A stretch of DNA of 64,000 nt from Deltaproteobacteria bacterium (GCA_035063765.1 JAPSFT010000010.1:9660-73659), one strand, 5' to 3'. Positions 40,811 through 59,117 are shown, counted from the first letter of the stretch. Notes: generated by a model from the letters alone, not told the origin. Translations and numbers: made by a program.

Positions 40811-40844
40811 CGTGCGCAGCGTGTAGGGCAGCCGGAGCGGAGGC

Positions 40845-41510
40845 TCAAGCCCGGGGCTCCCGCTCCCGCGCATAGAGGCTCACGAGACGCGCGAGCAGGA
40901 CCGCGATGTACATCTGGCCCCCCACCGCCTCGACGATCACGAGGCCCCGCGCCGCCGCGCTCTTCGGCACCAGGTCGCCGTAGCCGAGGGACGCGATCGT
41001 GACGAAGCTCAGGTACACGGCATCCTGGAGGCCCAGCCCGTCCGCCCCGACGTCGCCGGCGAACGAGCCGGGTCGCCATCGATCGATCGCCCGGTAGCCG
41101 ACGCCGAAGAGGATCGCGACGAGCAGGTAGGCGTCGAGCGCCGCGAAGATCCGCTCGCCGTCCACCCGGCCGGAGGCGAAGGCATGCCGCACGCTGGCGG
41201 TCGCGGCCAGCGCGAAGCCCGCCGGCCAGAGCAGCGCGCCGGCGGTCTGCGCGGGTGCCGCCCCCAGCACGGCCTGGATGCCCTGCACGGCCACCAGGGC
41301 GGCCGCCGCCGCCACCAGCCAGCGCATGCCGGGCTCGCGGGCGAGCCCGAGCGCGGCGACGCACAGGCTCACGCCGACCAGCAGCTCGAAGACGTTCCCG
41401 TCCGAGCCGAAGGTCTCGAGAACCGGCTGCGCGCCGAGCGTCGCGAGCAGCGCCCCGAACAGCCAGGCGAAGCGGCGGCGGCGATAGCGCTCGAGCAGGG
41501 AGCCCAGCAT
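40845..41510 (-). CDS. Potassium channel family protein (ion-transport-2 pore domain)
   Basis: Several TMs followed by YLSFVTIASLGYGDLVP pore/filter and EAVGGQMYIAVLLARLVSL. Confidence 0.88.
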   Translation of the reverse strand: MLGSLLERYRRRRFAWLFGALLATLGAQPVLETFGSDGNVFELLVGVSLCVAALGLAREPGMRWLVAAAAALVAVQGIQAVLGAAPAQTAGALLWPAGFALAATASVRHAFASGRVDGERIFAALDAYLLVAILFGVGYRAIDRWRPGSFAGDVGADGLGLQDAVYLSFVTIASLGYGDLVPKSAAARGLVIVEAVGGQMYIAVLLARLVSLYAREREPRA

Positions 41511-41518
41511 GCGAGGTC

Positions 41519-42598
41519 CTAGGGGGAGACCGAGGGCACGAGGTAGCAGACCAGGGCGAGCAGCACGTAGACCGCCAGGAGCTGCACGCCCTTGAACCAG
41601 TTCGATCGCCCGTCGGAGGCCACCAGGCCGCCGAGCAGCACCGAGACGAACAGGAACCCCATCTCGCCCCGCGTGAAGGAGAGCGAGAAGGGCTGCGGGC
41701 CGATCAGGCCGCCGAGCAGCACGAGGAGCGGCGCCACGAAGAGCGCGATCTGGATGCACGAGCCGAGCGCGATGCCGATCGAGAGGTCCATCTCGTTGCG
41801 CCGCCCCATCGCCACCGCCGAGCCGATCTCCGCCGCGCCGCCGACGGCCGCCAGCACGACGAGCCCGAGGAAGGTCGGCGACATCCCGAGGGCGTGGCCG
41901 GTCGCCTCGGCGGCGCCGACCAGCACCTCGCTGAGCCAGGCGGCGCCGAGGGAGGCCGCCACCAGCAGCAGCAGGGCGCGCTGCACGCTCGCGTGCGTTC
42001 CTGCGGCGGGCTCGCCCGGTGGGGGGCCCTCGTGCTTCGAGAAGGTCTCGCTGTGGGTGCGGAGCTGGTAGAGGAGGTAGAGCCCGTAGGTGGCGAGCAG
42101 GACGACCGCGACGCTCGTGTCGAGCACCCCCGTGTGGCGGAAGCCCTGCTCGGCCCCGAAGAAGCGGTGGAAGCCGCTCGGCACCGCCATGCTGATCACC
42201 GCCAGCAGCATCATCGAGGCGTAGGAGCGCGCGGCGAGCGGGTTGTAGTCCTGCGCGTGGTAGCGCAGGCCGCCGAGCAGGAAGGACAGGCCGAGACCGA
42301 GGAGCAGGTTCGCGAGCAGCGCGCCCACCAGGGACGCTCGCACCAGCTCGATCATCCCGGCGCGCAGGGCGACCACCGCGATGATCAGCTCGGGCAGGTT
42401 GCCGAAGGTCGCGTTCAGCAGGCCGCCCACGGCGGGACCGGTGCGGACCGCGATCGCCTCGGTGCTCTCCACGATCCGCATCGCGAGCGGTGCGATCGCC
42501 AGGGCGGCGCAGAAGAAGACCGCCGGTGCCGGCATCGTCCCGAGGGCGTCGAGGACGAGCGCGACGGGCGCGAGCAGCAGCATCCAGCGCAAATCCAT
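41519..42598 (-). CDS. Ca2+/H+ antiporter (CAX/ChaA family)
   Basis: [58 protein letters not shown]. Confidence 0.93.
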
Positions 42599-42720
42599 CG
42601 CCTCCTGAGGGACCGGGGCCGGGGTCGACAAGGCATGGAGCGTCTCCCAGCATACTACGCAGGAGCGTCATGGGCCCCGAGGCGATGTCCGGTCCGTCCG
42701 GGATCCGAACGGAGGAGCAG

Positions 42721-45123
42721 ATGGTTCGCACCTACACCGATCCGCGGCGAGAGACACCCGAGGGCACCGCGCTCTCGGCGGACGAGCTGCGCAGGACGGA
42801 CGCGTACTGGCGCGCCTGCAACTACCTCGCCGCCGGGATGATCTACCTGCGCGACAACCCCCTGCTGCGCGAGCCCCTCCAGCGCGAGCACATCAAGCAG
42901 CGCCTGCTCGGCCACTGGGGGGCGAGCCCGGGCCTCTCCTTCGCCTACGTGCACCTGAACCGGCTGATCCGCAAGTACGACCTCGACGCGATCTTCCTGG
43001 CCGGCCCGGGGCACGGCGCGCCCGGCGTCCTCGCGCCCGTCTACCTCGAGGGGACCTACTCGGAGGTGTTCCCGAACAAGAGCGAGGACCTGGACGGGAT
43101 GCGGGCCTTCCTCGAGGAGTTCTCGTTCCCGGGCGGGATCGGCAGCCACTGCACCCCGGAGACGCCCGGCTCGATCCACGAGGGCGGCGAGCTCGGCTAC
43201 TCGGTGTCGCACGCGTTCGGGGCGGCCTTCGACAACCCCGATCTGCTCGTCGCGGTGGTGGTCGGCGACGGCGAGGCCGAGACCGGGCCGCTGGCCACCT
43301 CGTGGCACTCGACCAAGTTCCTGAACCCGATCCGCGACGGCGCGGTGCTCCCGATCCTCCACCTGAACGGCTACAAGATCAACAACCCGACCCTGCTCGC
43401 CCGCATCTCCCACGACGAGCTGGAGAGCCTGTTCCGGGGCTACGGCTGGAGCCCGCGCTTCGTCGAGGGCCACGAGCCCGAGCGCATGCACCAGGCGATG
43501 GCGGCGACCCTCGAGGAGTGCGTGCTCGAGATCCGCCGCATCCAGGAGGAGGCGCGCGCGAGCGGCAGGGCGCTGCGGGCCCGCTGGCCGATGATCGTGC
43601 TGCGCAGCCCGAAGGGGTGGACCGGCCCGAAGGAGGTGGACGGTCACAAGGTCGAGGGCTCCTGGCGCGCGCACCAGGTCCCGCTCGCAGGCGTCCGGGA
43701 GAACCCCGCGCACTTGAAGCAGCTCGAGGAGTGGCTGCGCAGCTACCGGCCCGAGGAGCTCTTCGACGCGAGCGGGCGGCTGGTCGCCGAGCTGCGCGCG
43801 CTGGCGCCGGCCGGGCGCCGGCGCATGAGCGCCAACCCGCACGCCAACGGCGGCCTGCTGCGCAAGGCGCTGCGCATGCCCGACTTCCGCGACTACGCGA
43901 TCGAGCTCGAGGCGCCCGGCCAGGTGACGGCGGAGAACACCCGCCCGCTCGGGCGCCTGCTGCGCGACGTGATGCGCTCGAACCCGGACACCTTCCGGGT
44001 CTTCGGGCCCGACGAGAACACCTCGAACAAGCTCGACGCGATCTACGAGGTGAGCAAGAAGCTCTGGCTCGCCGACTCCCTGCCCGAGGACGCCGACGGC
44101 GGCGAGCTGGCGCCCGACGGGCGCGTCCTCGAGATGCTCTCCGAGCACACCCTCGAGGGCTGGCTCGAGGGCTACCTGCTGACCGGCCGCCACGGCTTCC
44201 TCTCGACCTACGAGGCCTTCGCCCACGTCATCGACTCGATGTTCAACCAGCACGCGAAGTGGCTCGCCGCCTCGCGCGAGCAGCCGTGGCGCGCGCCGGT
44301 GTCGTCGCTGAACCTGCTGATCACCTCGACGGTCTGGCGCCAGGACCACAACGGCTTCACGCACCAGGACCCGGGCTTCCTCGACGTGGTCGTGAACAAG
44401 AGCCCCGACGTGTGCCGGATCTACCTGCCGCCCGACGTGAACACGCTGCTGTGCATCGCCGACCGCTGCCTGCGCAGCACGAACGAGATCAACGTCATCG
44501 TCGCCGACAAGCAGAAGCACCTCCAGTACATGACGATGGACGAGGCCATCGTGCACTGCGCCAAGGGCGTCAGCATCTGGCGCCAGGCGAGCAACGACGA
44601 GGGCGAGGAGCCCGACGTCGTGATGGCGTGCGCGGGCGACATCCCGACCAAGGAGGCGCTGGCGGCGGTGGTGCTGCTCCGGGAGCACTTCCCCGCGCTC
44701 AAGATCCGCTTCGTCAACGTGGTGGACCTCTACAAGCTGACGCCTTCCAGCGAGCACCCGCACGGCCTCGCGGACCGCGACTTCGACAGCCTCTTCACCG
44801 TGGACCGGCCGATCATCTTCAACTTCCACGGCTATCCCTGGCTGATCCACCGGCTCGCCTACCGGCGCACCAACCACCGGAACCTGCACGTCCGCGGCTA
44901 CAAGGAGAAGGGCAGCATCAACACGCCCCTCGACCTCGCGATCCAGAACCAGATCGACCGCTTCAGCCTCGCGATCGACGTGATCGACCGCGTGCCCGGG
45001 CTCCGGGTCGCCGGCGCGCACGCCAAGGAGGCGCTGCGCAGCATGCAGATCGAATGCCAGAGCTACGCCTACGAGTGGGGCGTCGACAAGCCCGAGCTCG
45101 ACGGGTGGCGGTGGCCCTCCTGA
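42721..45123 (+). CDS. xfp: Xylulose-5-phosphate/fructose-6-phosphate phosphoketolase
   Basis: [75 protein letters not shown]; GGAGGAG RBS. Confidence 0.97.
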
Positions 45124-45189: not shown

Positions 45190-46896
45190 ATGGAAGGCCG
45201 CCGGATCCCGCTCGATCGACTCACCTGGCAGCGCTGGCGCCGCGCGACCTGGAGGTTCGTCAGGTCGGAGGTCGGGGGGCGGGCCCGGGCCCTGTTCCTG
45301 GCGCTCCTCGCGCTGTTGGTCGCGATCAACGGCCTGAACGTGGTGAACAGCTACGTCGGCCGCGACTTCATGACCGCGATCGAGGCGCGCAGCAAGTCGG
45401 GCTTCCTGTTCGAGGCCCTGCTCTACGTCGGCGTCTTCGCGGCGTCCACGGTGGCCGCGGTGATCTACAGCTTCTGCGAGCAGCGGCTGGGCCTGCTGTG
45501 GCGCGCCTGGCTCACGCGGGGGCTGATCGAGCGCTACCTGCACGACGACACCTACTACTGGCTGCGCGAGCACGACGAGCTTCCGAATCCGGACCAGCGG
45601 ATCGCCGAGGACGTCCGGACCTTCACGGCCACCACGCTCTCGCTCCTGCTGATCCTGCTCAACGCGACCTTCACGATCGTCGCCTTCTCCGGCGTCCTGT
45701 GGTCGATCAGCCCGCTGCTCTTCGGCACGGCGGTGGCGTACGCCGCGCTCGGCTCGGGGCTCACGGTCCTGTTCGGGAGGCCCCTGATCTGGCTCAACTA
45801 CCAGCAGTCCGACCGCGAGGCGGACCTGCGCGCGAGCCTCGTCCACGTGCGCGAGAACGCCGAGTCGGTGGCGCTCCTGCACCGCGAGGGCCGGCTCGGC
45901 GCGCGCCTGGGGAAGCGGGTCGACGCGCTGGTCGCCAACACGAGGCGGATCATCGCGGTGAACCGCAACCTCGGCTTCTTCACGACGGGCTACAACTACC
46001 TGATCCAGATCATCCCGGTCCTGATCGTGGCGCCGCTCTTCATCGGGGGACACGTCGAGTTCGGGGTGATCACCCAGTCCTCGATGGCCTTCTCGACCCT
46101 GATCGGCGCCTTCTCGCTGATCGTCACGCAGTTCCAGCAGATCTCGTCGTACGCCGTCGTGCTGGCGCGCCTCGGGGTCTTCGCCGAGAGCGTCGAGGAG
46201 GTGGCCGCCGACGGCGCCCGGGGCATCGTGCACGACGACGGCGGGGACGGGATCGCCTGGCAGGAGCTCACGCTGCGCTCGCCGCACGACGGGACGGTGC
46301 TGCTCGCCGGGCTGTCGGCCTCGGTGCGCTCCGGCACCCGCGTGCTCGTCACGGGGCCGAACGAGGCCGCGCGCTTCGCCCTGTTCCGGGCGACGGCCAG
46401 GCTCTGGAACGCGGGCGAGGGGCGCATCGTGCGGCCGCCGCCGGGCACGATCCTGTTCGTGCCCGAGCGGCCCTATCTGCCGCCGGGAACCCTGCGCGAG
46501 GCGCTGGTGCAGACCGGGCAGGAGCAGGCGATCTCCGACGCGCGCATCGCCGAGGTGCTGCGGGCGCTCGGGGTCGACGGGGTGTTCGCCCGGAGCGGAG
46601 GGCTCGACGCCGAGCAGGACTGGGACGACCTGCTGTCGCTCGGCGAGCAGCAGCTCCTCGGCTTCGCGAGGATCGTGCTGGCGAAGCCGCGCTTCGCGGT
46701 CCTCGATCGCCCCGCGACCCTGCTGCCGCGCGAGCTCGTGGAGCGTACCTGCGCGCTGCTCGCGGAGTCGGCGATCACCGTCGTCACCTTCGAGCGCGAC
46801 GCGGCGCTCGCCGCGCACCACGATGCCCAGCTCGAGATCGGCGAGGGCGGCCGCTGGGTCTGGCGGCCCCTCGCCCAGGCGAGCCGCAGCGCATGA
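45190..46896 (+). CDS. BacA/YddA (ABCD-like) half-transporter with catalytically degenerate nucleotide-binding domain
   Basis: TMD motifs WRAWLT, NPDQRIAEDV, READLR, RENAESVA, GFFTTGYNY; NBD retains LSLGEQQ but has GPNEAARF (Walker A), PERPYLP (Q-loop), AVLDRP (Walker B) and VTFERD (H-loop). Confidence 0.88.
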   Translation: MEGRRIPLDRLTWQRWRRATWRFVRSEVGGRARALFLALLALLVAINGLNVVNSYVGRDFMTAIEARSKSGFLFEALLYVGVFAASTVAAVIYSFCEQRLGLLWRAWLTRGLIERYLHDDTYYWLREHDELPNPDQRIAEDVRTFTATTLSLLLILLNATFTIVAFSGVLWSISPLLFGTAVAYAALGSGLTVLFGRPLIWLNYQQSDREADLRASLVHVRENAESVALLHREGRLGARLGKRVDALVANTRRIIAVNRNLGFFTTGYNYLIQIIPVLIVAPLFIGGHVEFGVITQSSMAFSTLIGAFSLIVTQFQQISSYAVVLARLGVFAESVEEVAADGARGIVHDDGGDGIAWQELTLRSPHDGTVLLAGLSASVRSGTRVLVTGPNEAARFALFRATARLWNAGEGRIVRPPPGTILFVPERPYLPPGTLREALVQTGQEQAISDARIAEVLRALGVDGVFARSGGLDAEQDWDDLLSLGEQQLLGFARIVLAKPRFAVLDRPATLLPRELVERTCALLAESAITVVTFERDAALAAHHDAQLEIGEGGRWVWRPLAQASRSA

Positions 46897-49800
46897 GCAC
46901 GCCCGGCCCGGTCCGGATCGCGAGCCCCTCCGGGCTCGTGGCGGAGGTCCACGCGAACGGCTCGCTCCGGCGCATCGACCACCGCGACGTGATCGTGAAC
47001 CTGTTCCCCGGCAACGCGCTCGAGGGCGGGCCCGCGAACCTGTTCCTGCGCCGCCGGGACGAGGCCGGTGCCTGGACGCCGCTCCTCGGGCCCCGCAGCC
47101 CCGGCCGGGTCCGGCTCGACGAGCGCGGGCTCGAGGTCACGGGCGAGTGGTCGGGCCTGCGCTTCCGGGTGGCGCTCGTGCTCGCCGGGTCGGCGCCGGC
47201 CTGGTTCTGGCACGTGGCGCTCGAGAACGCGGGAGCCACGGTGGCGACGATCGACCTCGTGCACGTGCAGGATCTGGCGCTCGCGGACTACGGGGCCGTG
47301 CGGCTCAACGAGTACTACGTGAGCCAGTACGTCGACTACACGCCGCTCGACCACCCCGGGCACGGCGTGGTCCTGGCGGTGCGGCAGAACCTCGCGATCG
47401 GGGGGCGCCACCCCTGGCTCGTGACCGGCTCGCTGGCCCGGGCGGCGAGCTTCTGCACGGACGCGATCCAGCTCCACGGTCTCTCGACCCGCGCAGGGGA
47501 CGCGCCGGCAGCTCTCGCCGGCGCCGGCCTTCCGGGCGTGCGCCACCAGCACGAGCACTCGCTCGCGGGGATCCAGGACGAGCCGCTGCGCCTCGCCCCC
47601 GGCGCGCGCGCGACGCTCGGCTTCTTCGCCTGGCTCGAGCCGGACCACCCGGACGCGAGCTCGGCCGGCGATCTCGCGTTCGCCGACCGCGCGCTGGCGC
47701 TCCCGGAGGCCGCGCCCCCCGGCGAGCGCACGGCACCCTCCGCCGCGCCACCCGCCGTCACCCTCTTCAGCGAGCAGCCCGTGCTCGCGGTGCACGACCT
47801 CGAGCCTGCCGCGCTCGCCGCCCGTTGCGGGAGCGAGCGCCGTGCGGTCGAGGAGGACGGCGGCCGCCTGCTGTCGTTCTTCACGGGCGGCGGCGCGCAC
47901 GTCGTCCTGCCGGCCAAGGAGCGCGCGAGCCTGCGCCCGCACGGGCAGATCCTGCGCACCGGCGAGCGGCTCGAGCCCGACGAGGCCTCGCTCACGACCA
48001 CGGTCTGGATGGGCGGCGTCTTCCACTCCATGGTGACGCAGGGCCACGTCAGCATCGGACGCCTGCTCTCGACGACCCACTCGTACCTCGGCCTGTTCCG
48101 CTCGCACGGACAACGGATCTTCGTCGACGCGGGCGAGGGCTGGCGGCTGCTCGGGGTGCCGTCGGCCTTCGCGATGACCCCGAGCAGCGCCACCTGGTGG
48201 TACCAGCACGCGGCGGGCCTGCTCGAGGTCCGGAGCTGGGCGCCGACCGACCGCCACGAGCTGTGGCTGGCCGCACGCGTCCTGGCGGGATCCCCCTGCC
48301 GCTTCCTGGTCTCCCACCACCTCGCGGTGAACGGCGACGACGGCGCCGACGCCGTCGCCGCGCGCTGGACGCGCGACGCGCAGGGCGTGGCGATCGCCCT
48401 GCTGCCGGACACGGACCTCGGCCGCCGTTTCCCTGGTGGTGGCTTCCGCATCGACCCGACACCGGACACGCCGATCGATCGCATCGGCGGCGACGAGCTG
48501 CTCTTCGCCGACGGCCGCTCGCGTGGACAGCCCTTCCTCACGCTGGTGACGGCGCCGGCCGCGTCCCTGGCCCTGCGCATCACCGGGCAGCTCGTGATGC
48601 CGGTGCCGCCCGGAGCGGTCGAGGAGCGCCACGCGGCCGACGCGGCGCAGGCCGGGCGCTTCTGGCGCGACCTGACGGGCGGGCTCACGCTCGAGGCGCC
48701 GGCGCCCGCCGAGAGCGAGCGGCTCGAAGCCGTCCTGCCCTGGCTCGCGCACGACGCGTGGATCCACCACCTGGCTCCCCGTGGCCTCGAGCAGTACTCG
48801 GGCGGGGGCTGGGGCACGCGCGACGTGTGCCAGGGGCCCGTCGAGCTGCTGCTCGGGCTCGGGCGCGTGGAGCCGGTGCGCGCGCTGCTCCGCACCGTCT
48901 TCCGCAACCAGGACCCGGACGGCGACTGGCCGCAGTGGTTCATGTTCTTCGAGCGCGAGCGCTCGATCCGCCCCGGGGACTCGCACGGCGACATCGTCTT
49001 CTGGCCGCTCCTGGCGCTCGCCAGGTACCTGCTGGCCTCGGAGGACGCGGCGCTGCTCGACGAGGAGCTGCCCTTCTTCCACCCGGAGGGGGAGGCCCGC
49101 GCCGAGCGCGCGACCCTGCTCGGCCACGTCGAGCGCGCGCTCGCGCTGATCGAGCGGCGCGTGATCCCGGGCACGCGGCTCGCGGCCTACGGTCACGGCG
49201 ACTGGAACGACTCGCTCCAGCCGGCCGATCCCGCGCTCGCCGAGCAGCTCTGCAGCGCCTGGACGGTGACGCTCCACCACCAGACCCTCGCCACCCTCGC
49301 CGAGGCGCTGCGCAGCGTGGACCGGAGTGCGCTCGCCGCCCCGCTCGAGGCCTCCCTCGGCCCGATCCGCGACGACTTCCAGCGGCTCCTGGTCGCGGAC
49401 GGGGTCGTCGCCGGCTTCGCGCGCTTCCGCCCCGACGGGGCCGTCGAGCACTGGATCCACCCGCGCGACCGGGAGGGCGACGTCCACTACAGCCTGCTCC
49501 CGATGGTCCACGCGATCCTGGCCGGGCTCTTCACCCCCGAGCAGGCAGCCCGACACGGAGCGGTGATCCGCCGCCACCTGCTCGCCGCCGACGGCGCGCG
49601 GCTCTTCGACCGGCCGTTCCCGTACCGGGGCGGCACCCAGCGCCGCTTCCAGCGCGCCGAGACCAGCACCTTCTTCGGCCGCGAGATCGGCATCATGTAC
49701 ACGCATGCGCACCTGCGCTACGCGGAGGCGATGGCGCACCTGGGCGACGCCGAGGCCTTCCACCTCGCGCTGCGTCAGGCCCTGTCCGCCGGCCTGCGCG

Positions 49801-50276
49801 AGGTCGTGCCGAGCGCGCGGCTGCGCCAGGCCAACTGCTACACGTCGAGCTCGGACGCGGACTTCCCCGATCGCTACGCCGCCTCGGCGGGCTACGACGC
49901 GGTCCGGACCGGCGCCGTGGCCGTCGAAGGGGGCTGGCGGGTGTACTCGAGCGGCGCCGGGATCGCGGTGAGCCTGCTCCGCCAGCGCCTCCTCGGCCTG
50001 CGCCTGCGGCGCTCCGGGGTGGTCTTCGATCCCGTACTCGCGCGGGCGCTCGACGGGCTGTGCGCGGGCGTCGAGCTCTTCGGGCAGTCCGTGCGCGTGC
50101 GCTATCAGGTGGGCGCGCGCGGCTACGGGCCGGTGCGGCTCACCTGGAACGGATCTCCACTTCGCTTCGCACGGGAAGCCAATCCCTACCGCGAGGGCGG
50201 CGCCGTCGTCGCCGCCGAGGAGCTGCGCGAGCGCCTGCGGAGCGGAGCCGGCGAGCTCACGATCGAGCTCGGATGA
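46893..50276 (+). CDS. GH94 glycoside phosphorylase, 1,2-beta-oligoglucan phosphorylase-like
   Basis: GLEQYSGGGWGTRDVCQGP, SHGDIVFWPL, YGHGDWNDSLQP (GH94 catalytic motif), EIGIMYTHAHLRY, QANCYTSSSD, GWRVYSSG; about 1127 aa; no signal peptide; ATGA overlap with the transporter. Confidence 0.85.
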   Translation: MSTPGPVRIASPSGLVAEVHANGSLRRIDHRDVIVNLFPGNALEGGPANLFLRRRDEAGAWTPLLGPRSPGRVRLDERGLEVTGEWSGLRFRVALVLAGSAPAWFWHVALENAGATVATIDLVHVQDLALADYGAVRLNEYYVSQYVDYTPLDHPGHGVVLAVRQNLAIGGRHPWLVTGSLARAASFCTDAIQLHGLSTRAGDAPAALAGAGLPGVRHQHEHSLAGIQDEPLRLAPGARATLGFFAWLEPDHPDASSAGDLAFADRALALPEAAPPGERTAPSAAPPAVTLFSEQPVLAVHDLEPAALAARCGSERRAVEEDGGRLLSFFTGGGAHVVLPAKERASLRPHGQILRTGERLEPDEASLTTTVWMGGVFHSMVTQGHVSIGRLLSTTHSYLGLFRSHGQRIFVDAGEGWRLLGVPSAFAMTPSSATWWYQHAAGLLEVRSWAPTDRHELWLAARVLAGSPCRFLVSHHLAVNGDDGADAVAARWTRDAQGVAIALLPDTDLGRRFPGGGFRIDPTPDTPIDRIGGDELLFADGRSRGQPFLTLVTAPAASLALRITGQLVMPVPPGAVEERHAADAAQAGRFWRDLTGGLTLEAPAPAESERLEAVLPWLAHDAWIHHLAPRGLEQYSGGGWGTRDVCQGPVELLLGLGRVEPVRALLRTVFRNQDPDGDWPQWFMFFERERSIRPGDSHGDIVFWPLLALARYLLASEDAALLDEELPFFHPEGEARAERATLLGHVERALALIERRVIPGTRLAAYGHGDWNDSLQPADPALAEQLCSAWTVTLHHQTLATLAEALRSVDRSALAAPLEASLGPIRDDFQRLLVADGVVAGFARFRPDGAVEHWIHPRDREGDVHYSLLPMVHAILAGLFTPEQAARHGAVIRRHLLAADGARLFDRPFPYRGGTQRRFQRAETSTFFGREIGIMYTHAHLRYAEAMAHLGDAEAFHLALRQALSAGLREVVPSARLRQANCYTSSSDADFPDRYAASAGYDAVRTGAVAVEGGWRVYSSGAGIAVSLLRQRLLGLRLRRSGVVFDPVLARALDGLCAGVELFGQSVRVRYQVGARGYGPVRLTWNGSPLRFAREANPYREGGAVVAAEELRERLRSGAGELTIELG

Positions 50277-53200
50277 CGGACGCGCTCCTCGACGACTTCC
50301 GCGACGTCTCCGCGTGGAGCGCCGTGGCCTCGGGCGAGGCGCAGCTCGCGATCACGAGCGGCGCGGGCCCGGACGGCGGCGCGGCGATGCGCCTCGACTA
50401 CGACTTCCGCGGCGGCGGCGGCTTCGTCGTGGCACGCAGGAGCCTTCCGCTCGCGCTGCCGAGCGCGTGGGCGCTCGCCCTGCGCGTGCGCGGCGCCGCG
50501 CCGGCCAACAAGCTCGAGATCAAGCTCGCCGATCCCAGCAACCGCAACGTCTGGTGGTGGCACCGGGACGCCTTCGAGCTCCCCGCCGAGTGGACGCCGC
50601 TGCGCATCCGCAGCAGCGAGGTCGCGTTTGCCTGGGGACCTGCGGGCGGGGGGGTGCTGCGCGAGCTCGGCGCGCTCGAGATCGCGATCGCCGCCGGGCC
50701 GGGCGGCCGCGGATCGCTCTGGATCGCCGACCTGCGCTTCGAGGACCGCTCGCTCGCCGGGCCGCCGCGCGCGACGGCTTCGAGTGCCGCACCCGGCCGC
50801 GATCCGGAGTGCGCGCTCGCCGCCGGGGGAAGCGGCTGGCGCAGCGCGCCCGGCGCCGGCGGCACGCAGTGGCTCGCGCTCGACTTCGGCCGCGAGCACG
50901 AGTACGGCGGGCTCGTGGTGGACTGGGCCGAGGAGGGTGCCCCGCGTGCCTTCGAGGTGCAGGCGTCCGGCGACGGCGCCTCCTGGGCGACGCTCTGGTC
51001 GGCGCGCCAGGCGGAGGGCGAGCGCAGCTACGTGTACCTGCCGGGCGGCTCCTCGCGCCATCTGCGGCTCCACCTGCTCGAGCCCGCCGCGGGCGCCGGC
51101 GGCTTCGCGATCCGCTCCCTCGAGGTGCAGCCCTTCGAGTTCTCCCGCTCGCTCGCCGAGTTCTTCCATGCCGTCGCGGCCCGCGAGCCGCGCGGCCGGC
51201 ATCCGCGCTGGCTGCACCGCGAGCAGTCGTACTGGACGCCGGCCGGGGTCGCCGGCGGGACGACGGCGGCGATCCTGAACGAGGAGGGCCTGCTCGAGCC
51301 CGACCGCGGCAGCTTCACGCTCGAGCCCTTCCTGTTCGCCGGGGGCACGCTCGGCACCTGGGCGGACGCGGCGATCGACCTCACCCTGGCGCGGGGCTGG
51401 CTGCCGATCCCGTCGGTGACCTGGCGCTGGCGCGGCTGGTCGCTCGAGACGACGGCCTTCGCGGTGGCGGAAGCCTCCGGCGCCGCGGCGCGCGTGCGCT
51501 ACCGGCTCGTGAACGAGGCGGCGGACACGCCGCGGGTGCGGCTCTTCGTGGCGCTGCGACCGTTCCAGGTCTCGCCGCCCTGGCAGTCGTTCCAGGGGAT
51601 CGGCGGGACGGCGCCGATCCGCACGCTCGCGTGGCGCGACGGGGCCGTCGAGGTGGACGGCATCGCGCGCGTGTGGCCGCTCGGGACACCCACGGGCTTC
51701 GGCGCCGCGGCCTTCGAGCAGGGCGGCGTCCTGCGCGCGCTCGCGCGCGGCGAGCTGCCCGCGCGCGCGGAGGTCGCCGACCCCTTCGCGCACGCCTCCG
51801 GCGCGCTGCTCTTCGAGCTCGAGCTCGCGCCGGGCGCGGCGGGCGAGATCGAGCTCGCGGTGCCCTTCGTCGAGCGCGAGCCGCTCGGGCCGGTGGCGCT
51901 CGGGTCGGAGCCCGCCGGCACGCTGCGGGAGGTCACGGAGGCCTGGGGCGAGGCCCTCGGGCGCGTCCGGATCGCGCTGGCCGCCGACGCGGGCTGCGTG
52001 GACGCGCTGCGCACCGCCGCCGGCCACGTGCTGGCGGTGCGCGACGGCCCGGCGCTCCAGCCCGGCCCGCGCCGCTACACCCGCTCGTGGATCCGCGACG
52101 GCGCCACCATGTCGGCTGCGCTGCTGCGGATCGGCTGCGCCGGCCCGGTGCGCGACTTCCTCGCGTGGTACGCGCCGCACCAGGCCGCGGACGGCAACGT
52201 CCCCTGCGCGGTGGACCGCAGCGGTCCCGACTGGCTGCCCGAGCACGACAGCCACGGCCAGCTCGTGTTCACGCTCGTCGAGTACGCCCGCTTCACCGGC
52301 GATCTCGCGTTCGCGCGCCGCCTGTGGCCTGCGGCGCAGCGGGCGGTCGCCTACCTCGAGGGGCTGCGGGCGCAGCGCTGCACGCCGGAGTACCGGGCGC
52401 CCGAGCAGCGGGCCCGCTTCGGGATCCTGCCGGAGTCCGCGAGCCACGAGGGCTATCTCGCGCAGCCGGTCCACTCCTACTGGGACGACTTCTGGGCCCT
52501 GCGCGGGATCGGTGACGCGGCCGACCTCGCGCGCGCGCTCGGCGAGGAGGCGGAAGCCCTCCGGCTCGCAGCGCTGCGCGATGCGCTGCACGCGTCGCTC
52601 TACGCCTCGATCGAGGCGACGATCGAGGAGCGCGGCCTCGCCTACGTCCCCGGCTCGGTCGAATGGGCCGACTTCGACCCGGCCGCCACGGCCACCGCGC
52701 TCACGACCACCGACGCCGCCGAGCGCCTGCCGCCGGGCGTGCTGGCCGCCACCTACGACGAGTACCTGGCCGGCCTGCGCCGCCGGCGCCGCGGCGAGAT
52801 CGAGTGGAACAACTACAGCGCCTACGAGATCCGCATCCTGGGGGCGCTCGTCCGGCTCGGCCGGCGCGCCGACGCGCACGAGCTGCTCGCCTTCTTCCTC
52901 GGCGACCGCCGCCCCCGCGCCTGGAACCAGTGGCCCGAGATCTCCTGGCGCGACCCGAGAAGCCCCGGCCACCTGGGCGACGTCCCCCATGCCTGGATCG
53001 GCGCCGAGTACGTGCTGGCCCTGCTCGCGATGTTCGCCTACGAGCGCCCCGCGGACGGCGCGCTGGTCGTCGCCGCCGGCGTCTCGGACGCCTGGCTCGA
53101 CGCCGGCGAGGTGGCGGTTGCGGGCCTGCCCACCTGGTGGGGATCCCTGTCCTACACGCTGCGGCGGAGCGGGCCGGGCGCCCTGCGCCTCGAGCTCGGC

Positions 53201-53356
53201 CCCGGCCTGCGCCCACCGCCGGGCGGCATCGTGGTGCGGCCGCCGCTCGCGCGCCCGCTCGCGCGCGTCACCGTGGACGGCGCGCCGGTCCCGGACGTTG
53301 GCGGAGACACGCTCACCCTGCGGCGCACGCCGGCGATCGTCTCGATGGAGTCGTGA
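50273..53356 (+). CDS. Uncharacterised glycoside hydrolase: CBM11/CIA30-like + discoidin (F5/8C) + beta-sandwich + (alpha/alpha)6 barrel
   Basis: LDDF..MRLDYDF N-terminal module; ATASS..WRS..QWLALDFG..FEVQASGDG discoidin; LQPGPRRYTRSWIRDG, EHDSHGQ, SYWDDFWALRG, WNQWPE, GDVPHAW; ATGA overlap with the GH94 gene; no signal peptide. Confidence 0.8.
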   Translation: MTDALLDDFRDVSAWSAVASGEAQLAITSGAGPDGGAAMRLDYDFRGGGGFVVARRSLPLALPSAWALALRVRGAAPANKLEIKLADPSNRNVWWWHRDAFELPAEWTPLRIRSSEVAFAWGPAGGGVLRELGALEIAIAAGPGGRGSLWIADLRFEDRSLAGPPRATASSAAPGRDPECALAAGGSGWRSAPGAGGTQWLALDFGREHEYGGLVVDWAEEGAPRAFEVQASGDGASWATLWSARQAEGERSYVYLPGGSSRHLRLHLLEPAAGAGGFAIRSLEVQPFEFSRSLAEFFHAVAAREPRGRHPRWLHREQSYWTPAGVAGGTTAAILNEEGLLEPDRGSFTLEPFLFAGGTLGTWADAAIDLTLARGWLPIPSVTWRWRGWSLETTAFAVAEASGAAARVRYRLVNEAADTPRVRLFVALRPFQVSPPWQSFQGIGGTAPIRTLAWRDGAVEVDGIARVWPLGTPTGFGAAAFEQGGVLRALARGELPARAEVADPFAHASGALLFELELAPGAAGEIELAVPFVEREPLGPVALGSEPAGTLREVTEAWGEALGRVRIALAADAGCVDALRTAAGHVLAVRDGPALQPGPRRYTRSWIRDGATMSAALLRIGCAGPVRDFLAWYAPHQAADGNVPCAVDRSGPDWLPEHDSHGQLVFTLVEYARFTGDLAFARRLWPAAQRAVAYLEGLRAQRCTPEYRAPEQRARFGILPESASHEGYLAQPVHSYWDDFWALRGIGDAADLARALGEEAEALRLAALRDALHASLYASIEATIEERGLAYVPGSVEWADFDPAATATALTTTDAAERLPPGVLAATYDEYLAGLRRRRRGEIEWNNYSAYEIRILGALVRLGRRADAHELLAFFLGDRRPRAWNQWPEISWRDPRSPGHLGDVPHAWIGAEYVLALLAMFAYERPADGALVVAAGVSDAWLDAGEVAVAGLPTWWGSLSYTLRRSGPGALRLELGPGLRPPPGGIVVRPPLARPLARVTVDGAPVPDVGGDTLTLRRTPAIVSMES

Positions 53357-53359: not shown

Positions 53360-54349
53360 CTACGCCTGCTCGCCACGCGCCTCGGGAAGCTGGTCGCGGA
53401 TGCGCTCCCAGGCGATCGCCGGGAGCACCTCGTCGACCACCTCGAGCGCGCTCTGCACCGCGCGGCTCGCCTGCTCGACCGAGCGCACCCCACCCGCCAT
53501 CGCCTCCTGGAGCGTCCGGGTCTCCTTGCCGACCGCGGCCTCGACCTGGGCCAGCAGCCAGTCGCTGTCGCGCCGCAGGAGCGCGACGAAGTCGCGCACG
53601 AGCCGGCCCCGGATGCCGGCCGCCACGCCCTCGAGCACGCACGCCTCCCACAAGGGCGAGCCGCGCTCGGGATAGTCGCCGCCCCACCCCTTCACGACGC
53701 CCTGGAGGCTTTCGGCCGTGCGCGCGAACCCCTCGCCGAGGAACGCCCTGCGCACGTCGGCCAGGCGCCGCCGGCGCGCGCTCTCGATCTCGTCGGGCGT
53801 GGCCGACGCCGGGGGGCGGCTCGGGTCGGGCCAGGTCCGTCCCTTCTCCCCGAGCAGCGCCACCACGCGCGCCACCGCGAGCTCACCGGCCTCCGCTCGC
53901 AGCCGCTCCGCGATCGCATGGCGAGCGCGCGGCACGAGCTCGTGCGAGCCCTTGCCGGCCGCCCCCATCACCTCGAGCTCCCCGAGCAGCGTCTGGATCG
54001 CGTCGAGGTCGCTCCCGGAGAGCCCCGTGCCGAGCTCCCCGTGCATCCGCTCGATGTCCTCGCGCATCGCGCGATGCGCGGCCTCGACGCGCTGCGCCCG
54101 CTCCGCGGCGAGCTCCTCGGCGCTCCGCTTGCGCGCGGTGGGGGACGCCAGGCTCGTGGCGCCCCCCGCCCGGCGCTGCTCCTCGATGCGCTCGTTCAGG
54201 CCCCGGATCGCGGCCTCGAAGTCGGCTTCGACCCGGGCAAAGCCGCTCTGCGGCCCGGGGGCGGCTGCCGGCTCGGGTTTCGCTCGGAACAGCCGGCCGA
54301 GGGAGTCGAGGAAGCCGAGACCTCCTCCCTGTGCTTCCGGGGTGGGCAT
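53360..54349 (-). CDS. Hypothetical all-helical/coiled-coil cytoplasmic protein
   Basis: AAGGAG RBS, TAGCGT -10 upstream, natural amino-acid composition; no family recognised. Confidence 0.75.
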   Translation of the reverse strand: MPTPEAQGGGLGFLDSLGRLFRAKPEPAAAPGPQSGFARVEADFEAAIRGLNERIEEQRRAGGATSLASPTARKRSAEELAAERAQRVEAAHRAMREDIERMHGELGTGLSGSDLDAIQTLLGELEVMGAAGKGSHELVPRARHAIAERLRAEAGELAVARVVALLGEKGRTWPDPSRPPASATPDEIESARRRRLADVRRAFLGEGFARTAESLQGVVKGWGGDYPERGSPLWEACVLEGVAAGIRGRLVRDFVALLRRDSDWLLAQVEAAVGKETRTLQEAMAGGVRSVEQASRAVQSALEVVDEVLPAIAWERIRDQLPEARGEQA

Positions 54350-54525: not shown

Positions 54526-55947
54526 TCAGGGCGCGAGCGGCTGGGGGATGGTCGGCGCGGGGGGCGCTTCCTGCCAGCCCCCGCCGAGCGCGCGATAGAG
54601 GGCCACCACCGCGTTCAGCTCGTCGCGCTGGGTGCGCGCGAGGTCGAGCTCGGCAGGGAAGAGCTGCTGCTGCGCGTCGAGCACCTCGAGGTAGGTGGCG
54701 AGCCCGCCGACGTAGCGGATCCGCGCGATGCGCAGCGATTCGCCGAGAGCCTCGACCGCGCGCCCCTGCTCGACGCGCATCTGGGCGAGCTTCTCGCGCG
54801 CCGTCAGCGCGTTCGAGACGTCCTGCAGGGCGACCAGCACCGACTGCTGGTAGTCGTGGAGCGCCGCCTGCGCGCCCGCCTCGCTCGCGCGCCAGCCGTA
54901 CCAGGTGCGGCCGAAGGTGAAGAGCGGGCCGACGGCGCTGCCGACGAGCGTCCAGAAGCTCGGGCCCGAGAGCGCCGAGTCGAGCTCGCCGCTCGTGCGG
55001 CCGGCCACCGCGGTGAGTCCGATGCGGGGGAAGAACCCGGCGAAGGCCTCGCCGATGCGTGCCGTCTCCGCGTGCAGGACCTCTTCGGCCTCGATCACGT
55101 CCGGCCGGCGCTCGAGGAGCTGCGACGGGATCCCGGGCGGGACCTCGGGCGGGAGCTCCTGCGCCGTCAGCACCGCGCCGCGCTCGATCTCGCCGGCGGG
55201 GCGGCCGAGCAGCACCGACAGCTCGTTCTCCTTGGCGACGATCCGCCGCTCGAGGTCGGGGAGCGACGCCGCGGCCTGCGCCAGCGCCGCCTCGCCGCGC
55301 AGGTAGTCGAGCTTGGAGGTGACGCCGCCGCGGAACTGGCGCTCGAAGAGGTCACGGGTCTCCCGGAACGACTCGACGGTCCGGCGCGTGATCGCGAGCT
55401 CGAGGTCGAGCTCGCGCAGCTCGAAATAGGCCTGTGCGACGCCGGTCACGAGGGAGAGGACGATGCCGCGCCGGAACGCCTCGCTGGCGAGCATCTCGGA
55501 GCGCGCGGCCTCGGTGGCGCGCCGGATGCGGCCCCACACGTCGAGCTCCCAGGCTGCGTTCAGCACGCCCAGGTAGAGGCTCTCGGTGCCGGTGTCGGGC
55601 GTCGGCGAGCCGAAGGTCGCGTCGTGCTCGCGATGGACGTCGAGCTCGTAGCCGGCGTCGGGAAACAGCTCGCCGCGCTGCACGGCGGCGAGGCCGCGCG
55701 CCTGCTCGACCCGCGAGGCGGCGGCCAGCAGGTCGCGATTGTTCGCGAGCGCCTCCTCGACGTGCGCGCGCAGCACGGGATCGCGGAACACCTCGAACCA
55801 CGGCAGGTCCGCGATCGAGGCCGGGTCCTCGGCGCTCGCGCGGTAGGCGGCAGGCGCCACCCCCTCGGGACGGCGGTAGCGCGGGCCGACGGCGCAGCCG
55901 GCGAGCGCCACGGCGAGCAGCGCCGCGAGCGCGCCGCGCGGCGTCAC
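54526..55947 (-). CDS. RND efflux outer-membrane lipoprotein (NodT/OprM family)
   Basis: [13 protein letters not shown] lipobox, [49 protein letters not shown]; GTGA overlap with the permease. Confidence 0.95.
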
Positions 55948-58900
55948 GGGTGCCCTCCGCCGGGCGGCGTGGCATCGCCTGCCGGCGGCGCGGGCGCCGG
56001 GGCGGGCGCACGGCTCCGGCCCGCGAGCCGCTCGACGACGTAGAACGACACCGGGATCAGGAAGATCGCGAGCAGCGACGCGGCCAGCATCCCGCCGATC
56101 ACCGTCGTTCCGATCAGCTTGCGCGCCTCCGCCCCCGAGCCCGAGGAGAGGGCGAGCGGGACCACGCCCAGGATGAAGGCGAAGGCGGTCATCAGGATCG
56201 GGCGCAGGCGCAGCCGCGCGCCGGCCAGCGCGGCCTCGGCGGCGCTCTTGCCCTGCTCGTGCTCGAGCTTCGCGAACTCGACGATCAGGATCGCGTTCTT
56301 CGCGGCGAGCCCGATCAGGGCGACCAGGCCGATCTGCGCGAACAGGCTGTTCTCGAAGGCGCGCAGCCAGAGCGCCAGGAAGGCGCCGAAGACCGCGATC
56401 GGGATCCCGAGCAGGACGCTGAAGGGCAGCGACCAGCTCTCGTACTGGGCGGCCAGGATCAGGAACACGACCAGCAGCGAGAGCGCGAAGATGGCGCCGG
56501 CCGAGATGCCCTCCTGGGCCACCTTCTCCTGGAACGACATGCCGTTGTAGTCGAAGCCCATCTCGCGGGGCATGGTCTCCGCGAAGACCTGCTCGAGCGC
56601 CCGCATCACCTGCGCGGAGCTGAAGCCCGCGTTCGCGGTCACGTTGATCTGCGCGGCCCGGTACTGGTTGAAGCGCATCGTGAACTCGGGCCCCGCGGTC
56701 GGCTTCATCTCGACCAGCGCCGAGAGCGGCACGCTCTCGCCCGCGTCGTTCAGCACGCGGAACTGGCCGACGTCCTCGGCGCGCGTGCGGAACTCGCCCT
56801 CGGCCTGCACGTAGACCTGCCAGGTGCGGCCGAAGCGGTTGAAGTAGTTGACGAAGTAGCCGCCCATGAAGGCCTGGAGGGTCTGGAACACGTCTGCGAT
56901 CGCGACGCCCTGCTTGAGCGTCTTGTCGCGGTCCACGTCGGCGAAGAGCTGGGGCACGTCGGCGACGAAGACCGTGGTCGCCGACGCGATCTCGGGGCGC
57001 TTGCGGGCCTCCGCGAGGAAGCGCTGGGTCTGGGCGGCCAGGAACGCGGGGGTCCCGCCCGAGCGGTCCTCGAGCATGAAGGTGACGCCGCCGGCGGTGC
57101 CGACGCCGGCGATCGCCGGCGGCGGGAACGCGAAGGCGATCGCCTCGGGGAGCTTCCCGAGCTCGCGGTTGATGTGGGCCTTGATGGCCGCGTACTGCTC
57201 GTCCGGCGCGGTGCGCTCGCCCCACTCGTCGAAGGTGACGAAGAAGAAGGCGTTGTAGGTCGCGTACACCGTCGAGAGCAGGCTGAAGCCGACGACGGTG
57301 TTGTAGCTGTGGACGCCCGGGGTCTCGGCGAGGATCCGTTCGATCTGCTGGCACACCACGTCGGTGCGCTGGAGCGACGCCGCGTTCGGGAGCTGGACGG
57401 CGAGGTAGAGGTAGCCCTGGTCCTCCTCGGGCAGGAAGCCGCTCGGGAGGCGCGAGCCCACGAGCCCGGTGAGCACCGTCACGCCCAGCAGCAGCAGCAT
57501 GGCGCGCGCGGACTTGCGGATCAGGACGCTGCACCCGTGCACGTAGCCGTCGGTGACGCGGCCGAAGACGCGGTTGAACCAGCGGAAGAAGGCGCCGAGC
57601 GGGCCGCGCGCCTCCTTGCGGGGCTTCAGGAGCAGCGCCGCCAGCGCCGGCGAGAGGGTCAGGGCGTTGAAGGCCGAGAGCAGCACCGAGATCGAGATCG
57701 TCACCGCGAACTGCTGGTACATCCGGCCGGTGATGCCGGGCACGAAGGCGGTGGGAAGGAACACGGCCGTGAGGATCAGGGCGATCGCGACGACGGGGCC
57801 CGACACCTCGGACATCGCCTTCAAGGTGGCGTCGCGCGGCGAGAGCCCGTGCTCGATGTGGTGCTCGACGGCCTCCACCACCACGATCGCGTCGTCCACC
57901 ACGATGCCGATCGCGAGCACCAGGGCGAGCAGCGAGATCGTGTTGATCGAGAAGCCGAAGAGCGGGAAGAAGACGAAGGTGCCGATCAGCGAGACCGGCA
58001 CCGCGAGCAGCGGGATCAGGGTGGCGCGCCAGCCCTGCAGGAACACGAACACCACCAGGATCACCAGCACGATCGCCTCCCAGAGCGTGTGCAGGATCTC
58101 CGTGATGCCTTCGCTCACCGCGAGCGTGGTGTCGAGCGAGACCTCGTAGTCGAGGTCGGCCGGGAAGCGCTGCTTCAGCTCCTCCATCAGCGCCCGCGCC
58201 TCGCGGATCGACTGCAGGGCGTTGGAACCGGGCTTCTGGTAGATGGCGACGATCGCCGCCGGCTTGCCGTTCAGGCGGCCGGTCACGTTGTAGGACTGGG
58301 CGCCGAGCTCGATGCGGGCCACGTCGCGCACGCGGATCACCGAGCCGTCCGGCATCGCGCGCACCACGATGTCGCCGAACTCCTCCGCGTCGACGAGGCG
58401 GCCCTGCGCGCGCACCGTGTAGGTGAACTCCTGGCCCGGGGGCACCGGCTCGCTGCCGACCTGGCCGGCCGGGTTCACCCGGTTCTGCTGCTGGATCGCC
58501 GAGACGATCTCGGGCACCGTGATGCCGCGCTGGGCGAGCACGTCGGGCCGGACCCACATGCGCATCGCGTACTGGCCGGCCCCGAAGATCGAGACCTGGC
58601 CCACGCCGTACACGCGCGACATCGGGTCGTTCACGTTGATGTACGCGTAGTTCGCGAGGAACTCGGCGTCGAAGGTGCCGTTCGGCGAGTAGAGCGAGAA
58701 GAGCGCGAGCGGGCTCGTGGTCGACTTCTTGATCGTGACCCCGTAGCTGCGCACGTCCTCGGGGAGCTGCGACTCCGCCTGCGACTGGCGCATCTGGGAG
58801 AGCACCTGGTCGATGTTGGGATCGGTGCCGACCTCGAAGTAGACGTAGAGCGTGCTGTTCCCGGCGTTGGTGTTCACCGAGTACATGTAGATCGAGTCGT

Positions 58901-59117
58901 CGACGCCGCTCATCTGCTGCTCGATGGGCGTCGCCACCGCCTGCTCGGCGGTGAGCGCGTCGGCGCCGACGTAGGTGGTCGCGAGCTGGATCGCGGGCGG
59001 CGCGATGTCGGGGAACTGCGCGATCGGGAGCTGCACGATGGCGACGAGACCGAGCAGCACGGTCAGGATCGAGATCACGATCGCGACGATCGGGCGCCGG
59101 ACGAAGAACGACGACAC
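55944..59117 (-). CDS. RND efflux permease (HAE1, AcrB/MexB-like)
   Basis: [69 protein letters not shown]. Confidence 0.97.

Follow-up and report, generated by a model that had tools for sequence, protein, structure and literature searches.

Described systems for beta-1,2-glucan utilization

Bacterial degradation and recycling of beta-1,2-glucans and osmoregulated periplasmic glucans (OPGs), as well as the passage of these large hydrophilic compounds across the inner membrane, are poorly known. In the closest described loci, Listeria innocua lin1839-1843 and that of Lachnoclostridium phytofermentans, a 1,2-beta-oligoglucan phosphorylase (below, SOGP) of glycoside hydrolase (GH) family 94 is encoded together with a GH3 beta-glucosidase and a type I ATP-binding cassette (ABC) importer whose binding protein is Lin1841. 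Characterized SOGP loci use importers of this binding-protein type, and the only other beta-1,2-glucan ABC system described before 2026 was the type IV exporter of Brucella; just two earlier studies of beta-1,2-glucan ABC transporters are listed in a paper of May 2026 (PMC13731917). SOGP is unable to cleave sophorose (PMC5309861), and the known beta-1,2-glucanases belong to the families GH144, GH162, GH186, and GH192-194 (PMC12102758). Here we describe an operon of different composition, found in a 64,000-nt stretch of a genome assigned to Deltaproteobacteria bacterium (GCA_035063765.1 JAPSFT010000010.1:9660-73659); this whole stretch is called the window below, and positions are counted from its first letter. 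The operon most likely comprises four genes:

~42721-45123, plus strand: phosphoketolase (XFP; Pfam XFP_N 6.7e-178, XFP 5.9e-82, XFP_C 6.6e-90)
45190-46896, plus strand: P0001, ABCD/Rv1819c-type half-transporter with a dead domain resembling a nucleotide-binding domain (NBD) (PF06472, PF05992, PDB 6TQE)
46893-50276, plus strand: P0002, predicted cytoplasmic 1,2-beta-oligoglucan phosphorylase (GH94, SOGP subfamily; SOGP Pfam domains, PDB 5H3Z, residue mapping)
50273-53356, plus strand: P0003, predicted cytoplasmic five-domain protein of an uncharacterized six-hairpin glycosidase family (AlphaFold 2 (AF2) model, Foldseek)

The operon is likely to act on beta-1,2-glucan, and, with a probability of about 0.55, we read it as a system that breaks this polymer down in the cytoplasm, the substrate probably being the cell's own OPG; this reading is based on sequence comparison and structural modeling. 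As in the Listeria and Lachnoclostridium loci, the catalytic and subsite residues of SOGP are conserved and glucose-1-phosphate is predicted to be released in the cytoplasm. Unlike these loci, the operon contains a dead-NBD ABCD transporter and an unclassified enzyme of 1,027 residues instead of the binding-protein importer and GH3, includes phosphoketolase, and occurs in Gram-negative hosts that produce OPGs. No publication linking ABCD/BacA transporters to glucans or describing an OPG turnover pathway was found in literature searches.

Operon organization

The G+C content of the window is approximately 75% and mechanical lists of open reading frames (ORFs) are crowded with shadow frames; despite this, P0001, P0002, and P0003 are genuine genes. 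A preliminary description of the locus had presented them as a chain with ATGA overlaps, and such stop/start overlaps are found on the plus strand exactly at 46893-46896 (P0001/P0002) and 50273-50276 (P0002/P0003). It had also reported the lack of a solute-binding-protein importer and of GH3; indeed, neither a GH3 gene nor an SBP_bac_1 gene is present in the window, the copies of this genome (96% complete) residing on other contigs. Its assignments of the three products, namely a BacA-type transporter with a dead-looking ATPase, an SOGP, and a novel cytoplasmic multi-domain (alpha/alpha)6 glycosidase, agree with the results given in the following sections. A Shine-Dalgarno-like purine-rich sequence, GAAGGGG, lies just 5' of the ATG at 45190. 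The phosphoketolase gene, whose start was placed by inference at the ATG opening MVRTYTDP, ends 67 bp before P0001 on the same strand; since the gap is so short and no terminator-like site was found on the plus strand between the two genes, phosphoketolase is probably a part of the operon. Minus-strand genes flank the unit: upstream lies a Na/Ca exchanger gene, and downstream are the genes of an RND efflux operon. Genes for outer-membrane uptake, TonB-dependent or other, were not seen adjoining the operon.

1,2-beta-oligoglucan phosphorylase

P0002 matches the Pfam domains SOGP_N (6.8e-67), SOGP_2nd (4e-38), and SOGP_4th (3.2e-07) and aligns end to end with SOGP of L. phytofermentans (LpSOGP, PDB 5H3Z, E-value 1.8e-174), the entire SOGP domain set (Ndom1, second supersandwich, catalytic barrel, and C-terminal domain) being present. 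Matches to cellobiose and cellodextrin phosphorylases reach only ~2e-4 to 1e-3, and P0002 groups with SOGP rather than with cellobiose or laminaribiose phosphorylases; the grouping that, according to the preliminary description, would have spoken against its reading was thus not observed. The LpSOGP residues listed in PMC5309861 were mapped onto P0002 via alignments, which placed the catalytic acid in the following segment:

49203-49211, plus strand: W771-N772-D773 of P0002, D773 corresponding by alignment to the catalytic acid D760 of LpSOGP and invariant in 17 orthologues

The subsite -1 residues R630, D631, W758, and E917 of LpSOGP correspond to R643, D644, W771, and E931 and, like the catalytic acid, are invariant in the 17 orthologues, which come from related loci. 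Subsites +1 and +2 (N138, Y141, R907, R916, Q621, and Y1004) are represented by N139, Y142, R921, R930, Q634, and Y1018, while the small residues G623 and A626, which make room for subsite +2, correspond to S636 and G639. Finally, the phosphate site (Y922, H924, S1005, and S1006) maps to Y936, H938, S1019, and S1020. All P0002 residues checked in this way were identical or conservatively replaced, and the conserved ones do not vary among the 17 orthologues. P0002 is thus very probably an SOGP, agreeing with this enzyme in every feature that can be checked in a sequence.

Transporter with a degenerate nucleotide-binding domain

The membrane domain of P0001 matches PF06472 (2e-42, 145.9 bits with a cut-off of 24.4) and also PF05992 (SbmA_BacA; 6e-11, 42.8 bits), and six hydropathy peaks fit six transmembrane helices. 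Its best bacterial structural relative is PDB 6TQE (E-value 6.7e-55 over residues 15-564), which we take to be Rv1819c; for plant ABCD1 the E-value is 3.7e-71. In membrane family and helix number P0001 resembles Rv1819c (Mycobacterium tuberculosis BacA; 6TQE/6TQF), ABCD4, and SbmA/BacA. Characterized prokaryotic members of the SbmA/BacA/Rv1819c family import bulky hydrophilic compounds, and we know of no carbohydrate substrate for the ABCD/BacA family. Source annotations of P0001 relatives vary between 'putative ABC transporter', 'SbmA/BacA-like', and 'vitamin B12/bleomycin/antimicrobial peptide transport system'.

Unlike NBD-less SbmA/BacA, P0001 has an NBD-like domain after the membrane domain: the ~220 C-terminal residues are related to ABC_tran (26 bits), although many members of the P0001 family score nothing for this model. 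The motifs of the domain are degenerate, as follows:

46345-46392, plus strand: degenerate Walker A, LVTGPNEAARFALFRA, with GPNEAARF where ABCD proteins have GPNGSGKS
46453-46500, plus strand: Q-loop region, PERPYLPPGTLRE, with Gln replaced by Glu (PERPY versus PQRPY) and the rest of the segment highly conserved
46624-46677, plus strand: ABCD-type signature LSLGEQQ, kept (LSLGEQQR in ABCD proteins) and partly kept in orthologues
46687-46815, plus strand: Walker B (FAVLDR) and H-loop, with LDR versus LDE, that is, the catalytic Glu replaced by Arg, and the H-loop His lost

Walker A and the key residues Gln (Q-loop), Glu (Walker B), and His (H-loop) are missing not only from P0001 but from 38/38 aligned orthologues (48-59% identity), which span Binatia, Rokubacteria, Verrucomicrobia, Chromatiales, Methylococcales, Desulfobacterota, and Nitrospirales. 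None of the aligned orthologues keeps the GxxGxGK[ST] Walker A pattern, and the segment PERPYxPPGTLRE is nearly invariant among them. The full ATPase motif set is kept in paralogues with 32-41% identity from four loci (L003, L023, L039, and L078). The loss of ATPase motifs in P0001 is a conserved trait and not decay in a single genome. Rv1819c and ABCD4 possess working ATPase sites and SbmA/BacA no NBD at all, whereas P0001 combines a full-length NBD-like domain with lost motifs and no encoded intact partner; this conserved state bears on the relation of NBD-less SbmA/BacA to the ATP-driven Rv1819c type.

Pairing of P0001 with an active ABCD partner was considered and rejected for the source genome, where P0001 is the sole PF06472 gene; given a completeness of 96% and the absence of another such gene, it is unlikely that a heterodimer with a single live site forms there. 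In a Thermodesulfobacteriota locus (L078), a dead-NBD ABCD gene (2635-4440, plus strand) is accompanied by a motif-intact paralogue with 41% identity (11632-13479, minus strand), and an asymmetric heterodimer is possible in some lineages such as this one. Besides the two close homologues of P0001 discussed below, a third one heads an ABCD-SOGP operon without P0003 on a metagenome contig (L086:4369-19695). The neighbors of this operon encode acetate kinase, phosphoenolpyruvate carboxykinase, transaldolase, glycogen phosphorylase, and an isoamylase-type debranching enzyme, which is a storage-glucan catabolic neighborhood.

Unclassified six-hairpin glycosidase

The AF2 model of P0003, built on 31 homologues (mean pLDDT 88.3, pTM 0.84), together with conservation and domain searches, suggests five domains:

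50273-50752, plus strand: N-terminal beta-sandwich, residues ~1-160, with strong conservation that extends to WGPxGGG at 121-127
50771-51091, plus strand: F5/8 type C (discoidin) domain, similar to carbohydrate-binding module (CBM) family 32 (Pfam 1.1e-09; CBM32 structures versus the family profile, E-value 7e-11)
51170-51907, plus strand: predicted beta-supersandwich, residues ~300-545 (secondary structure of the model; architecture as in GH94, GH15, and GH116)
51920-53047, plus strand: predicted (alpha/alpha)6 catalytic-type barrel, residues ~550-925, with 12-13 helices (AF2 model, conservation)
53048-53356, plus strand: predicted C-terminal beta-sandwich (AF2 model)

Assignment of P0003 to a known family was rejected, as searches in Pfam, NCBIfam, and PDB, which stood in for CAZy/dbCAN, gave only the discoidin domain and weak six-hairpin and MmpH matches. 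In Pfam, the discoidin domain alone is recognized, and sub-threshold matches among the 31 members point to Bac_rhamnosid6H (20/31, best E-value 1.3e-3), GDE_C (nine members), and GH15 (six members). The single NCBIfam match, the GH15-type model TIGR01577, scores 27 bits against a cut-off of 821, and for the C-terminal 480 residues phmmer and the family profile gave no solved relative beyond a marginal stretch of MmpH. At the level of structure, Foldseek placed GH94 phosphorylases first, followed by GH15-type dextran dextrinase, exo-beta-D-arabinanase, GH116, and GH78; the E-values against GH94, GH15-type, GH116, and GH78 structures range from 2.5e-17 to 1e-10 at an identity of 9-17%.

In a profile comparison by hhalign, P0003 matched SOGP with 77% probability: W606-I-R608-D609 is aligned with the subsite -1 motif WGTRD, and D659-S-H-G with DSHG. 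GH15 enzymes have a similar W-x-R-D motif. The predicted domain order and fold of P0003 are those of six-hairpin enzymes of the families GH15, GH65, GH94, GH116, GH78, and GH95, but P0003 remains below all model thresholds, shares little identity with the solved structures, and has two extra N-terminal beta-sandwiches. Common to 79 family members, including a paralogue with 43% identity described below, are a very highly conserved first domain and numerous invariant residues (acidic residues, Arg, His, and Trp) on the six barrel loops. The invariant candidates for the active site are R600, R601, W606, R608, D609, E657, D659, E721, H725, E726, D738, D739, E797, D800, D802, E852, E889, D903, H906, and E912.

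The proposed role of P0003, cutting glucan for SOGP, is that of the endo-beta-1,2-glucanases of clan GH-S (GH144, GH162, and GH192-194) and of GH186 (OpgD/OpgG). An (alpha/alpha)6 barrel is likewise the fold of the clan GH-S enzymes, but these are single-domain proteins without the combination of supersandwich and barrel predicted for P0003. No sequence relation between P0003 and the clan GH-S families was detected, GH186 not being specifically compared. In particular, when PDB was searched with the profile at E<=10, there was no match to the clan GH-S families with beta-1,2-glucanases (GH144, GH162, GH189, and GH192-194), and none of the top-50 Foldseek descriptions names a beta-1,2-glucanase, although chain 8RF0 of the cyclic glucan synthase Cgs, which also holds a GH189 domain, is found at rank 21, the matching domain being unresolved in this search.

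A word-indexed search revealed more than 1,100 proteins of the P0003 family, relatives are present in at least 575 GTDB species genomes, and an exhaustive profile search yielded 1,686 clusters at 50% identity (E<=1e-30). All 76 N-terminally complete orthologues (76/76) lack a signal peptide, starting ~4 residues before the first domain, and are predicted to be cytoplasmic. As judged from sequence and model, P0003 represents an unclassified six-hairpin glycosidase family without a curated family or a solved relative, and is a candidate for a new family of glycoside hydrolases.

Paralogous module of the source genome

A paralogue of P0003 (43% identity) is encoded on another contig of the same genome (C9:201326-212680; locus L083:5327-16680), followed by a stand-alone GH94 of the Cgs/NdvB type. 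Genes for a sugar-binding protein and fused permeases precede this pair, and a gene for a MalK-type ATPase follows it. The second-best PDB match of the binding protein is Lin1841, the sophorooligosaccharide-binding protein of Listeria (E-value 2.5e-60). The replacement of the binding-protein importer noted in the preliminary description holds for the window; elsewhere in the genome, a Listeria-type importer exists in the paralogous module. A Cgs (GT84) synthase was sought and rejected, as the only other GH94 of the genome is this stand-alone protein; the 2,352-codon 'open frame' at its gene is a high-GC artefact.

Extended at its N-terminus by 42 residues, among them an Arg-Arg pair and a hydrophobic core, the paralogue is probably exported. 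Its place upstream of an oligosaccharide importer is where an extracytoplasmic depolymerase is expected, and this position is the best available clue that the P0003 family cuts beta-1,2-glucan polymers. The cytoplasmic form, in turn, would need its substrate delivered whole, which would be a job for a large-cavity transporter.

Conservation of the gene neighborhood

The genes were further compared in 80 loci fetched around P0003 orthologues. Since antisense shadow ORFs were merged when all ORFs were clustered by single linkage, neighbors within 10 kb were counted by targeted tblastn. The dead-NBD transporter was found in 41 loci, SOGP in 36, a second GH94 of 1,130 residues in 13, GH1 beta-glucosidase in 12, phosphoketolase in eight, and acetate kinase in seven; with distant paralogues counted, 48/80 loci hold an ABCD-type transporter of one subfamily or another. 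When only the 36 loci with full 10-kb flanks are taken, the dead-NBD transporter occurs in 21, SOGP in 14, and the Cgs/NdvB-type stand-alone GH94 in 10; 32/36 hold the transporter or an SOGP/Cgs-type GH94, and 13/36 hold both the transporter and such a GH94. The co-occurrence of the three genes expected in the preliminary description is thus observed in many phyla.

In 13 loci the second GH94 (~1,130 residues) is encoded directly downstream of P0003 and matches 8RF9 (E-value 5.7e-246); by sequence, both GH94 types accompanying P0003 are assigned to beta-1,2-glucan enzymes. Such stand-alone Cgs-type GH94s lie at ~13050-16950 (plus strand) directly downstream of P0003 orthologues of Verrucomicrobia and Chromatiales (L058, L062, L065, L066, L067, L071, L073, and L079), and no characterization of them was found in the literature searched.

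Only the source genome, among 151 of its phylum, carries P0003, and one genome of the same genus lacks the module. This patchy occurrence, together with module orthologues that are 50-70% identical in other phyla, points to horizontal spread of the module. Cultured carriers include Thiocapsa sp. KS1, Thiorhodococcus mannitoliphagus DSM 18266, Lamprocystis purpurea DSM 4197, Thiocystis minor DSM 178, Ramlibacter solisilvae, and isolates of Verrucomicrobium and Haloferula.

Proposed function

We suggest the following route. P0001 would form a homodimeric large-cavity transporter of the ABCD/Rv1819c type with NBDs unable to bind or hydrolyze ATP, through which glucan would move downhill from the periplasm, where OPG is concentrated, to the cytoplasm, to be trapped there by metabolism; the retained NBD-like domain might serve as a gate or docking module. 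P0003, probably an inverting hydrolase with two CBM-like beta-sandwiches, would make the cut that is impossible for an exo-phosphorylase, whether by opening a ring, removing a branch, or endo-cleavage. P0002 could then phosphorolyze the resulting linear beta-1,2 chains from the non-reducing end to glucose-1-phosphate at no cost in ATP, an activity suggested by homology and conserved residues, and the hexose phosphates would enter the phosphoketolase route to acetyl-phosphate. The catabolic direction is indicated by the recurrence of GH1 beta-glucosidase, phosphoketolase, and acetate kinase near P0003, as well as by the importer of the second module. The parts of this route differ in strength: inward transport of glucan by P0001 is a tentative assignment, somewhat short of an even chance, and that of P0003 as a depolymerizing or ring-opening hydrolase is slightly more tentative still.

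The own OPG of the cell is, on balance, the probable substrate. OpgG (GH186) was found in 12/12 P0003-carrier genomes tested, including the source genome, a phylogenetically non-independent sample, compared to 4/151 genomes of the phylum and 1/14 controls. Genes opgG or opgGH lie within 10 kb of P0003 in 6/80 loci from at least three lineages, with ~0.5 expected by chance; in Thiorhodococcus mannitoliphagus the gene order is opgG, opgH, GH1, dead-NBD transporter, P0003, and Cgs-type GH94. In the source genome the opgG-opgH operon, by which OPG can be made, is located on contig C3 (~37900-42275, minus strand), and no GT84 synthase was found. Three observations favor OPG over scavenging from prey: the co-occurrence of OpgG with P0003, the position of opgGH next to P0003 in part of the loci, and the apparent absence of outer-membrane uptake genes beside the operon. 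Moreover, an unenergized transporter suits a substrate concentrated in the periplasm and poorly suits dilute foreign glucan. The preliminary description, which had proposed import and degradation or recycling of beta-1,2-glucans possibly taken from prey or neighbors, is upheld as to the glucan by SOGP and gene linkage, while scavenging is less well supported than recycling of OPG.

Several observations weigh against this reading. First, two close homologues of P0001 (67-68% identity) sit in unrelated contexts, with no glucan genes within 9 kb, so P0001 is not strictly tied to the glucan enzymes. Second, we know of no characterized ABC-fold transporter that is a homodimer with both sites dead, and the direction and driving force of P0001 are therefore guesses. 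Third, the catalytic residues of P0003 and the bond it cleaves are candidates only, and its hhalign match to canonical GH94 has a probability of 1.8%, which is not significant. Fourth, neither partner is present in 15/80 P0003 loci, 11 of which are below full length (mostly short contigs) and four have full flanks. Finally, the OpgG association is drawn from just 12 carriers, which are not independent phylogenetically.

In a more far-reaching version, which we regard as doubtful, OPG would be a retrievable reserve of carbon and energy: P0001, descended from an ABC importer but no longer hydrolyzing ATP, would act as a regulated NBD-gated uniporter through which whole OPG or cyclic beta-1,2-glucan of ~1-4 kDa runs down a steep gradient into the cytoplasm, the new GH family would open or debranch it, and SOGP would feed phosphoketolase and acetate kinase with glucose-1-phosphate made at no cost in ATP. 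If true, this would give the ABCD/BacA family its first carbohydrate substrate and be the first case of an ABC-fold transporter that works with both sites dead; it would also add a family to the glycoside hydrolases and describe a pathway of OPG turnover for the first time. SOGP is already in use for making beta-1,2-glucans, and a partner enzyme opening cyclic or branched glucans would be useful.

Alternative interpretations

The same enzymes could serve to scavenge cyclic or linear beta-1,2-glucans from neighbors or prey. The host is a metagenome-assembled genome of the Myxococcota type, characterized SOGP loci are nutritional (PMC13731917), and the second module, with its exported enzyme and high-affinity binding-protein importer, resembles a scavenging system. 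This source of glucan is nevertheless unlikely for the operon, given a transporter without an energy source, the lack of an adjoining outer-membrane uptake gene, OpgG in every carrier tested, and opgGH abutting the module in six loci. Many carriers, furthermore, are phototrophs (purple sulfur bacteria), methanotrophs, nitrite-oxidizing Nitrospirales, and sulfate reducers, not typical polysaccharide foragers.

A similarly low probability is assigned to P0003 being a phosphorylase or exo-enzyme for the SOGP end product, that is, a sophorose phosphorylase or hydrolase replacing GH3 of the Listeria-type loci. In its favor, P0003 takes the position of GH3 in the Listeria loci, SOGP leaves sophorose uncleaved (PMC5309861), GH94 phosphorylases are the nearest detectable relatives, and the predicted active-site loops carry numerous invariant Arg and His residues. 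However, the phosphate-binding His of GH94 falls on Ala850 in both profile alignments (at low confidence), and the Thr/Ser-Gly phosphate loop falls on the non-polar Ile909/Ala911, with invariant Glu852 and Glu912 nearby. The phosphate-binding residues of GH94 thus appear to be absent, which weakly suggests a hydrolase rather than a phosphorylase; a GH94-type phosphorylase is also disfavored by the insignificant alignment to canonical GH94. In addition, 12 loci already hold a GH1 beta-glucosidase, the two CBM-like domains suggest a polymeric substrate, and the exported paralogue stands upstream of a sophorooligosaccharide-type importer, in the place of a depolymerase.

Less probable again is that P0001 moves another hydrophilic solute or peptide, as do SbmA, BacA, and Rv1819c, or is a membrane anchor or regulator, glucan entering by another way. 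The characterized relatives carry peptides, cobalamin, or acyl-CoA, close homologues occur away from glucan genes, and in 15 P0003 loci neither partner, ABCD or GH94, lies within reach. The operon contains no other candidate transporter, and this explanation sits poorly with translational coupling by ATGA, with transporter adjacency in 21/36 full-flank loci across phyla, and with the recruitment of two different ABCD subfamilies to the same enzyme pair.

Finally, a biosynthetic module, in which GH94 would build beta-1,2 chains from glucose-1-phosphate, P0003 would transglycosylate or cyclize them like GH189 of Cgs, and P0001 would export them like NdvA/Cgt, is highly improbable: the trio does parallel the Cgs set, with an (alpha/alpha)6 domain, GH94, and a type IV-fold ABC protein linked to beta-1,2-glucan, 13 loci hold a stand-alone GH94 closest to the GH94 domain of Cgs, and opgGH is adjacent in six, but the four genes of the operon encode separate proteins with no detected GT84 or other glycosyltransferase or primer-forming domain, the recurrent neighbors are catabolic (GH1, phosphoketolase, and acetate kinase), phosphorolysis is favored at cellular ratios of phosphate to glucose-1-phosphate, an exporter without ATPase has no driving force, the binding-protein importer of the paralogous module is import-only, ABCD-type P0001 is far from MsbA-like NdvA (E-value 3.4e-4, NBD only), and neither the sequence hits nor the Foldseek top 50 of P0003 include an SGL-clan or GH189 match.

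Other genes of the window

The remaining features around the operon are as follows:

39260-40066, plus strand: DUF4410 protein, upstream
40067-40873, minus strand: LOG/SLOG-type 'possible lysine decarboxylase' family protein
41519-42631, minus strand: membrane protein of the Na/Ca-exchanger family, the upstream boundary of the operon on the opposite strand
53360-54349, minus strand: ORF of 329 codons, without a Pfam match, running toward the end of P0003
54526-60729, minus strand: RND efflux operon with the outer-membrane factor OEP and an AcrB-type pump at 55944-59117

The RND efflux operon is unrelated to the glucan genes, and the 329-codon ORF may be an orphan gene or a high-GC shadow frame. 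Homologues of the LOG/SLOG protein were found by ORF clustering in 8/80 P0003 loci, two of which pass the 40%-identity tblastn filter.

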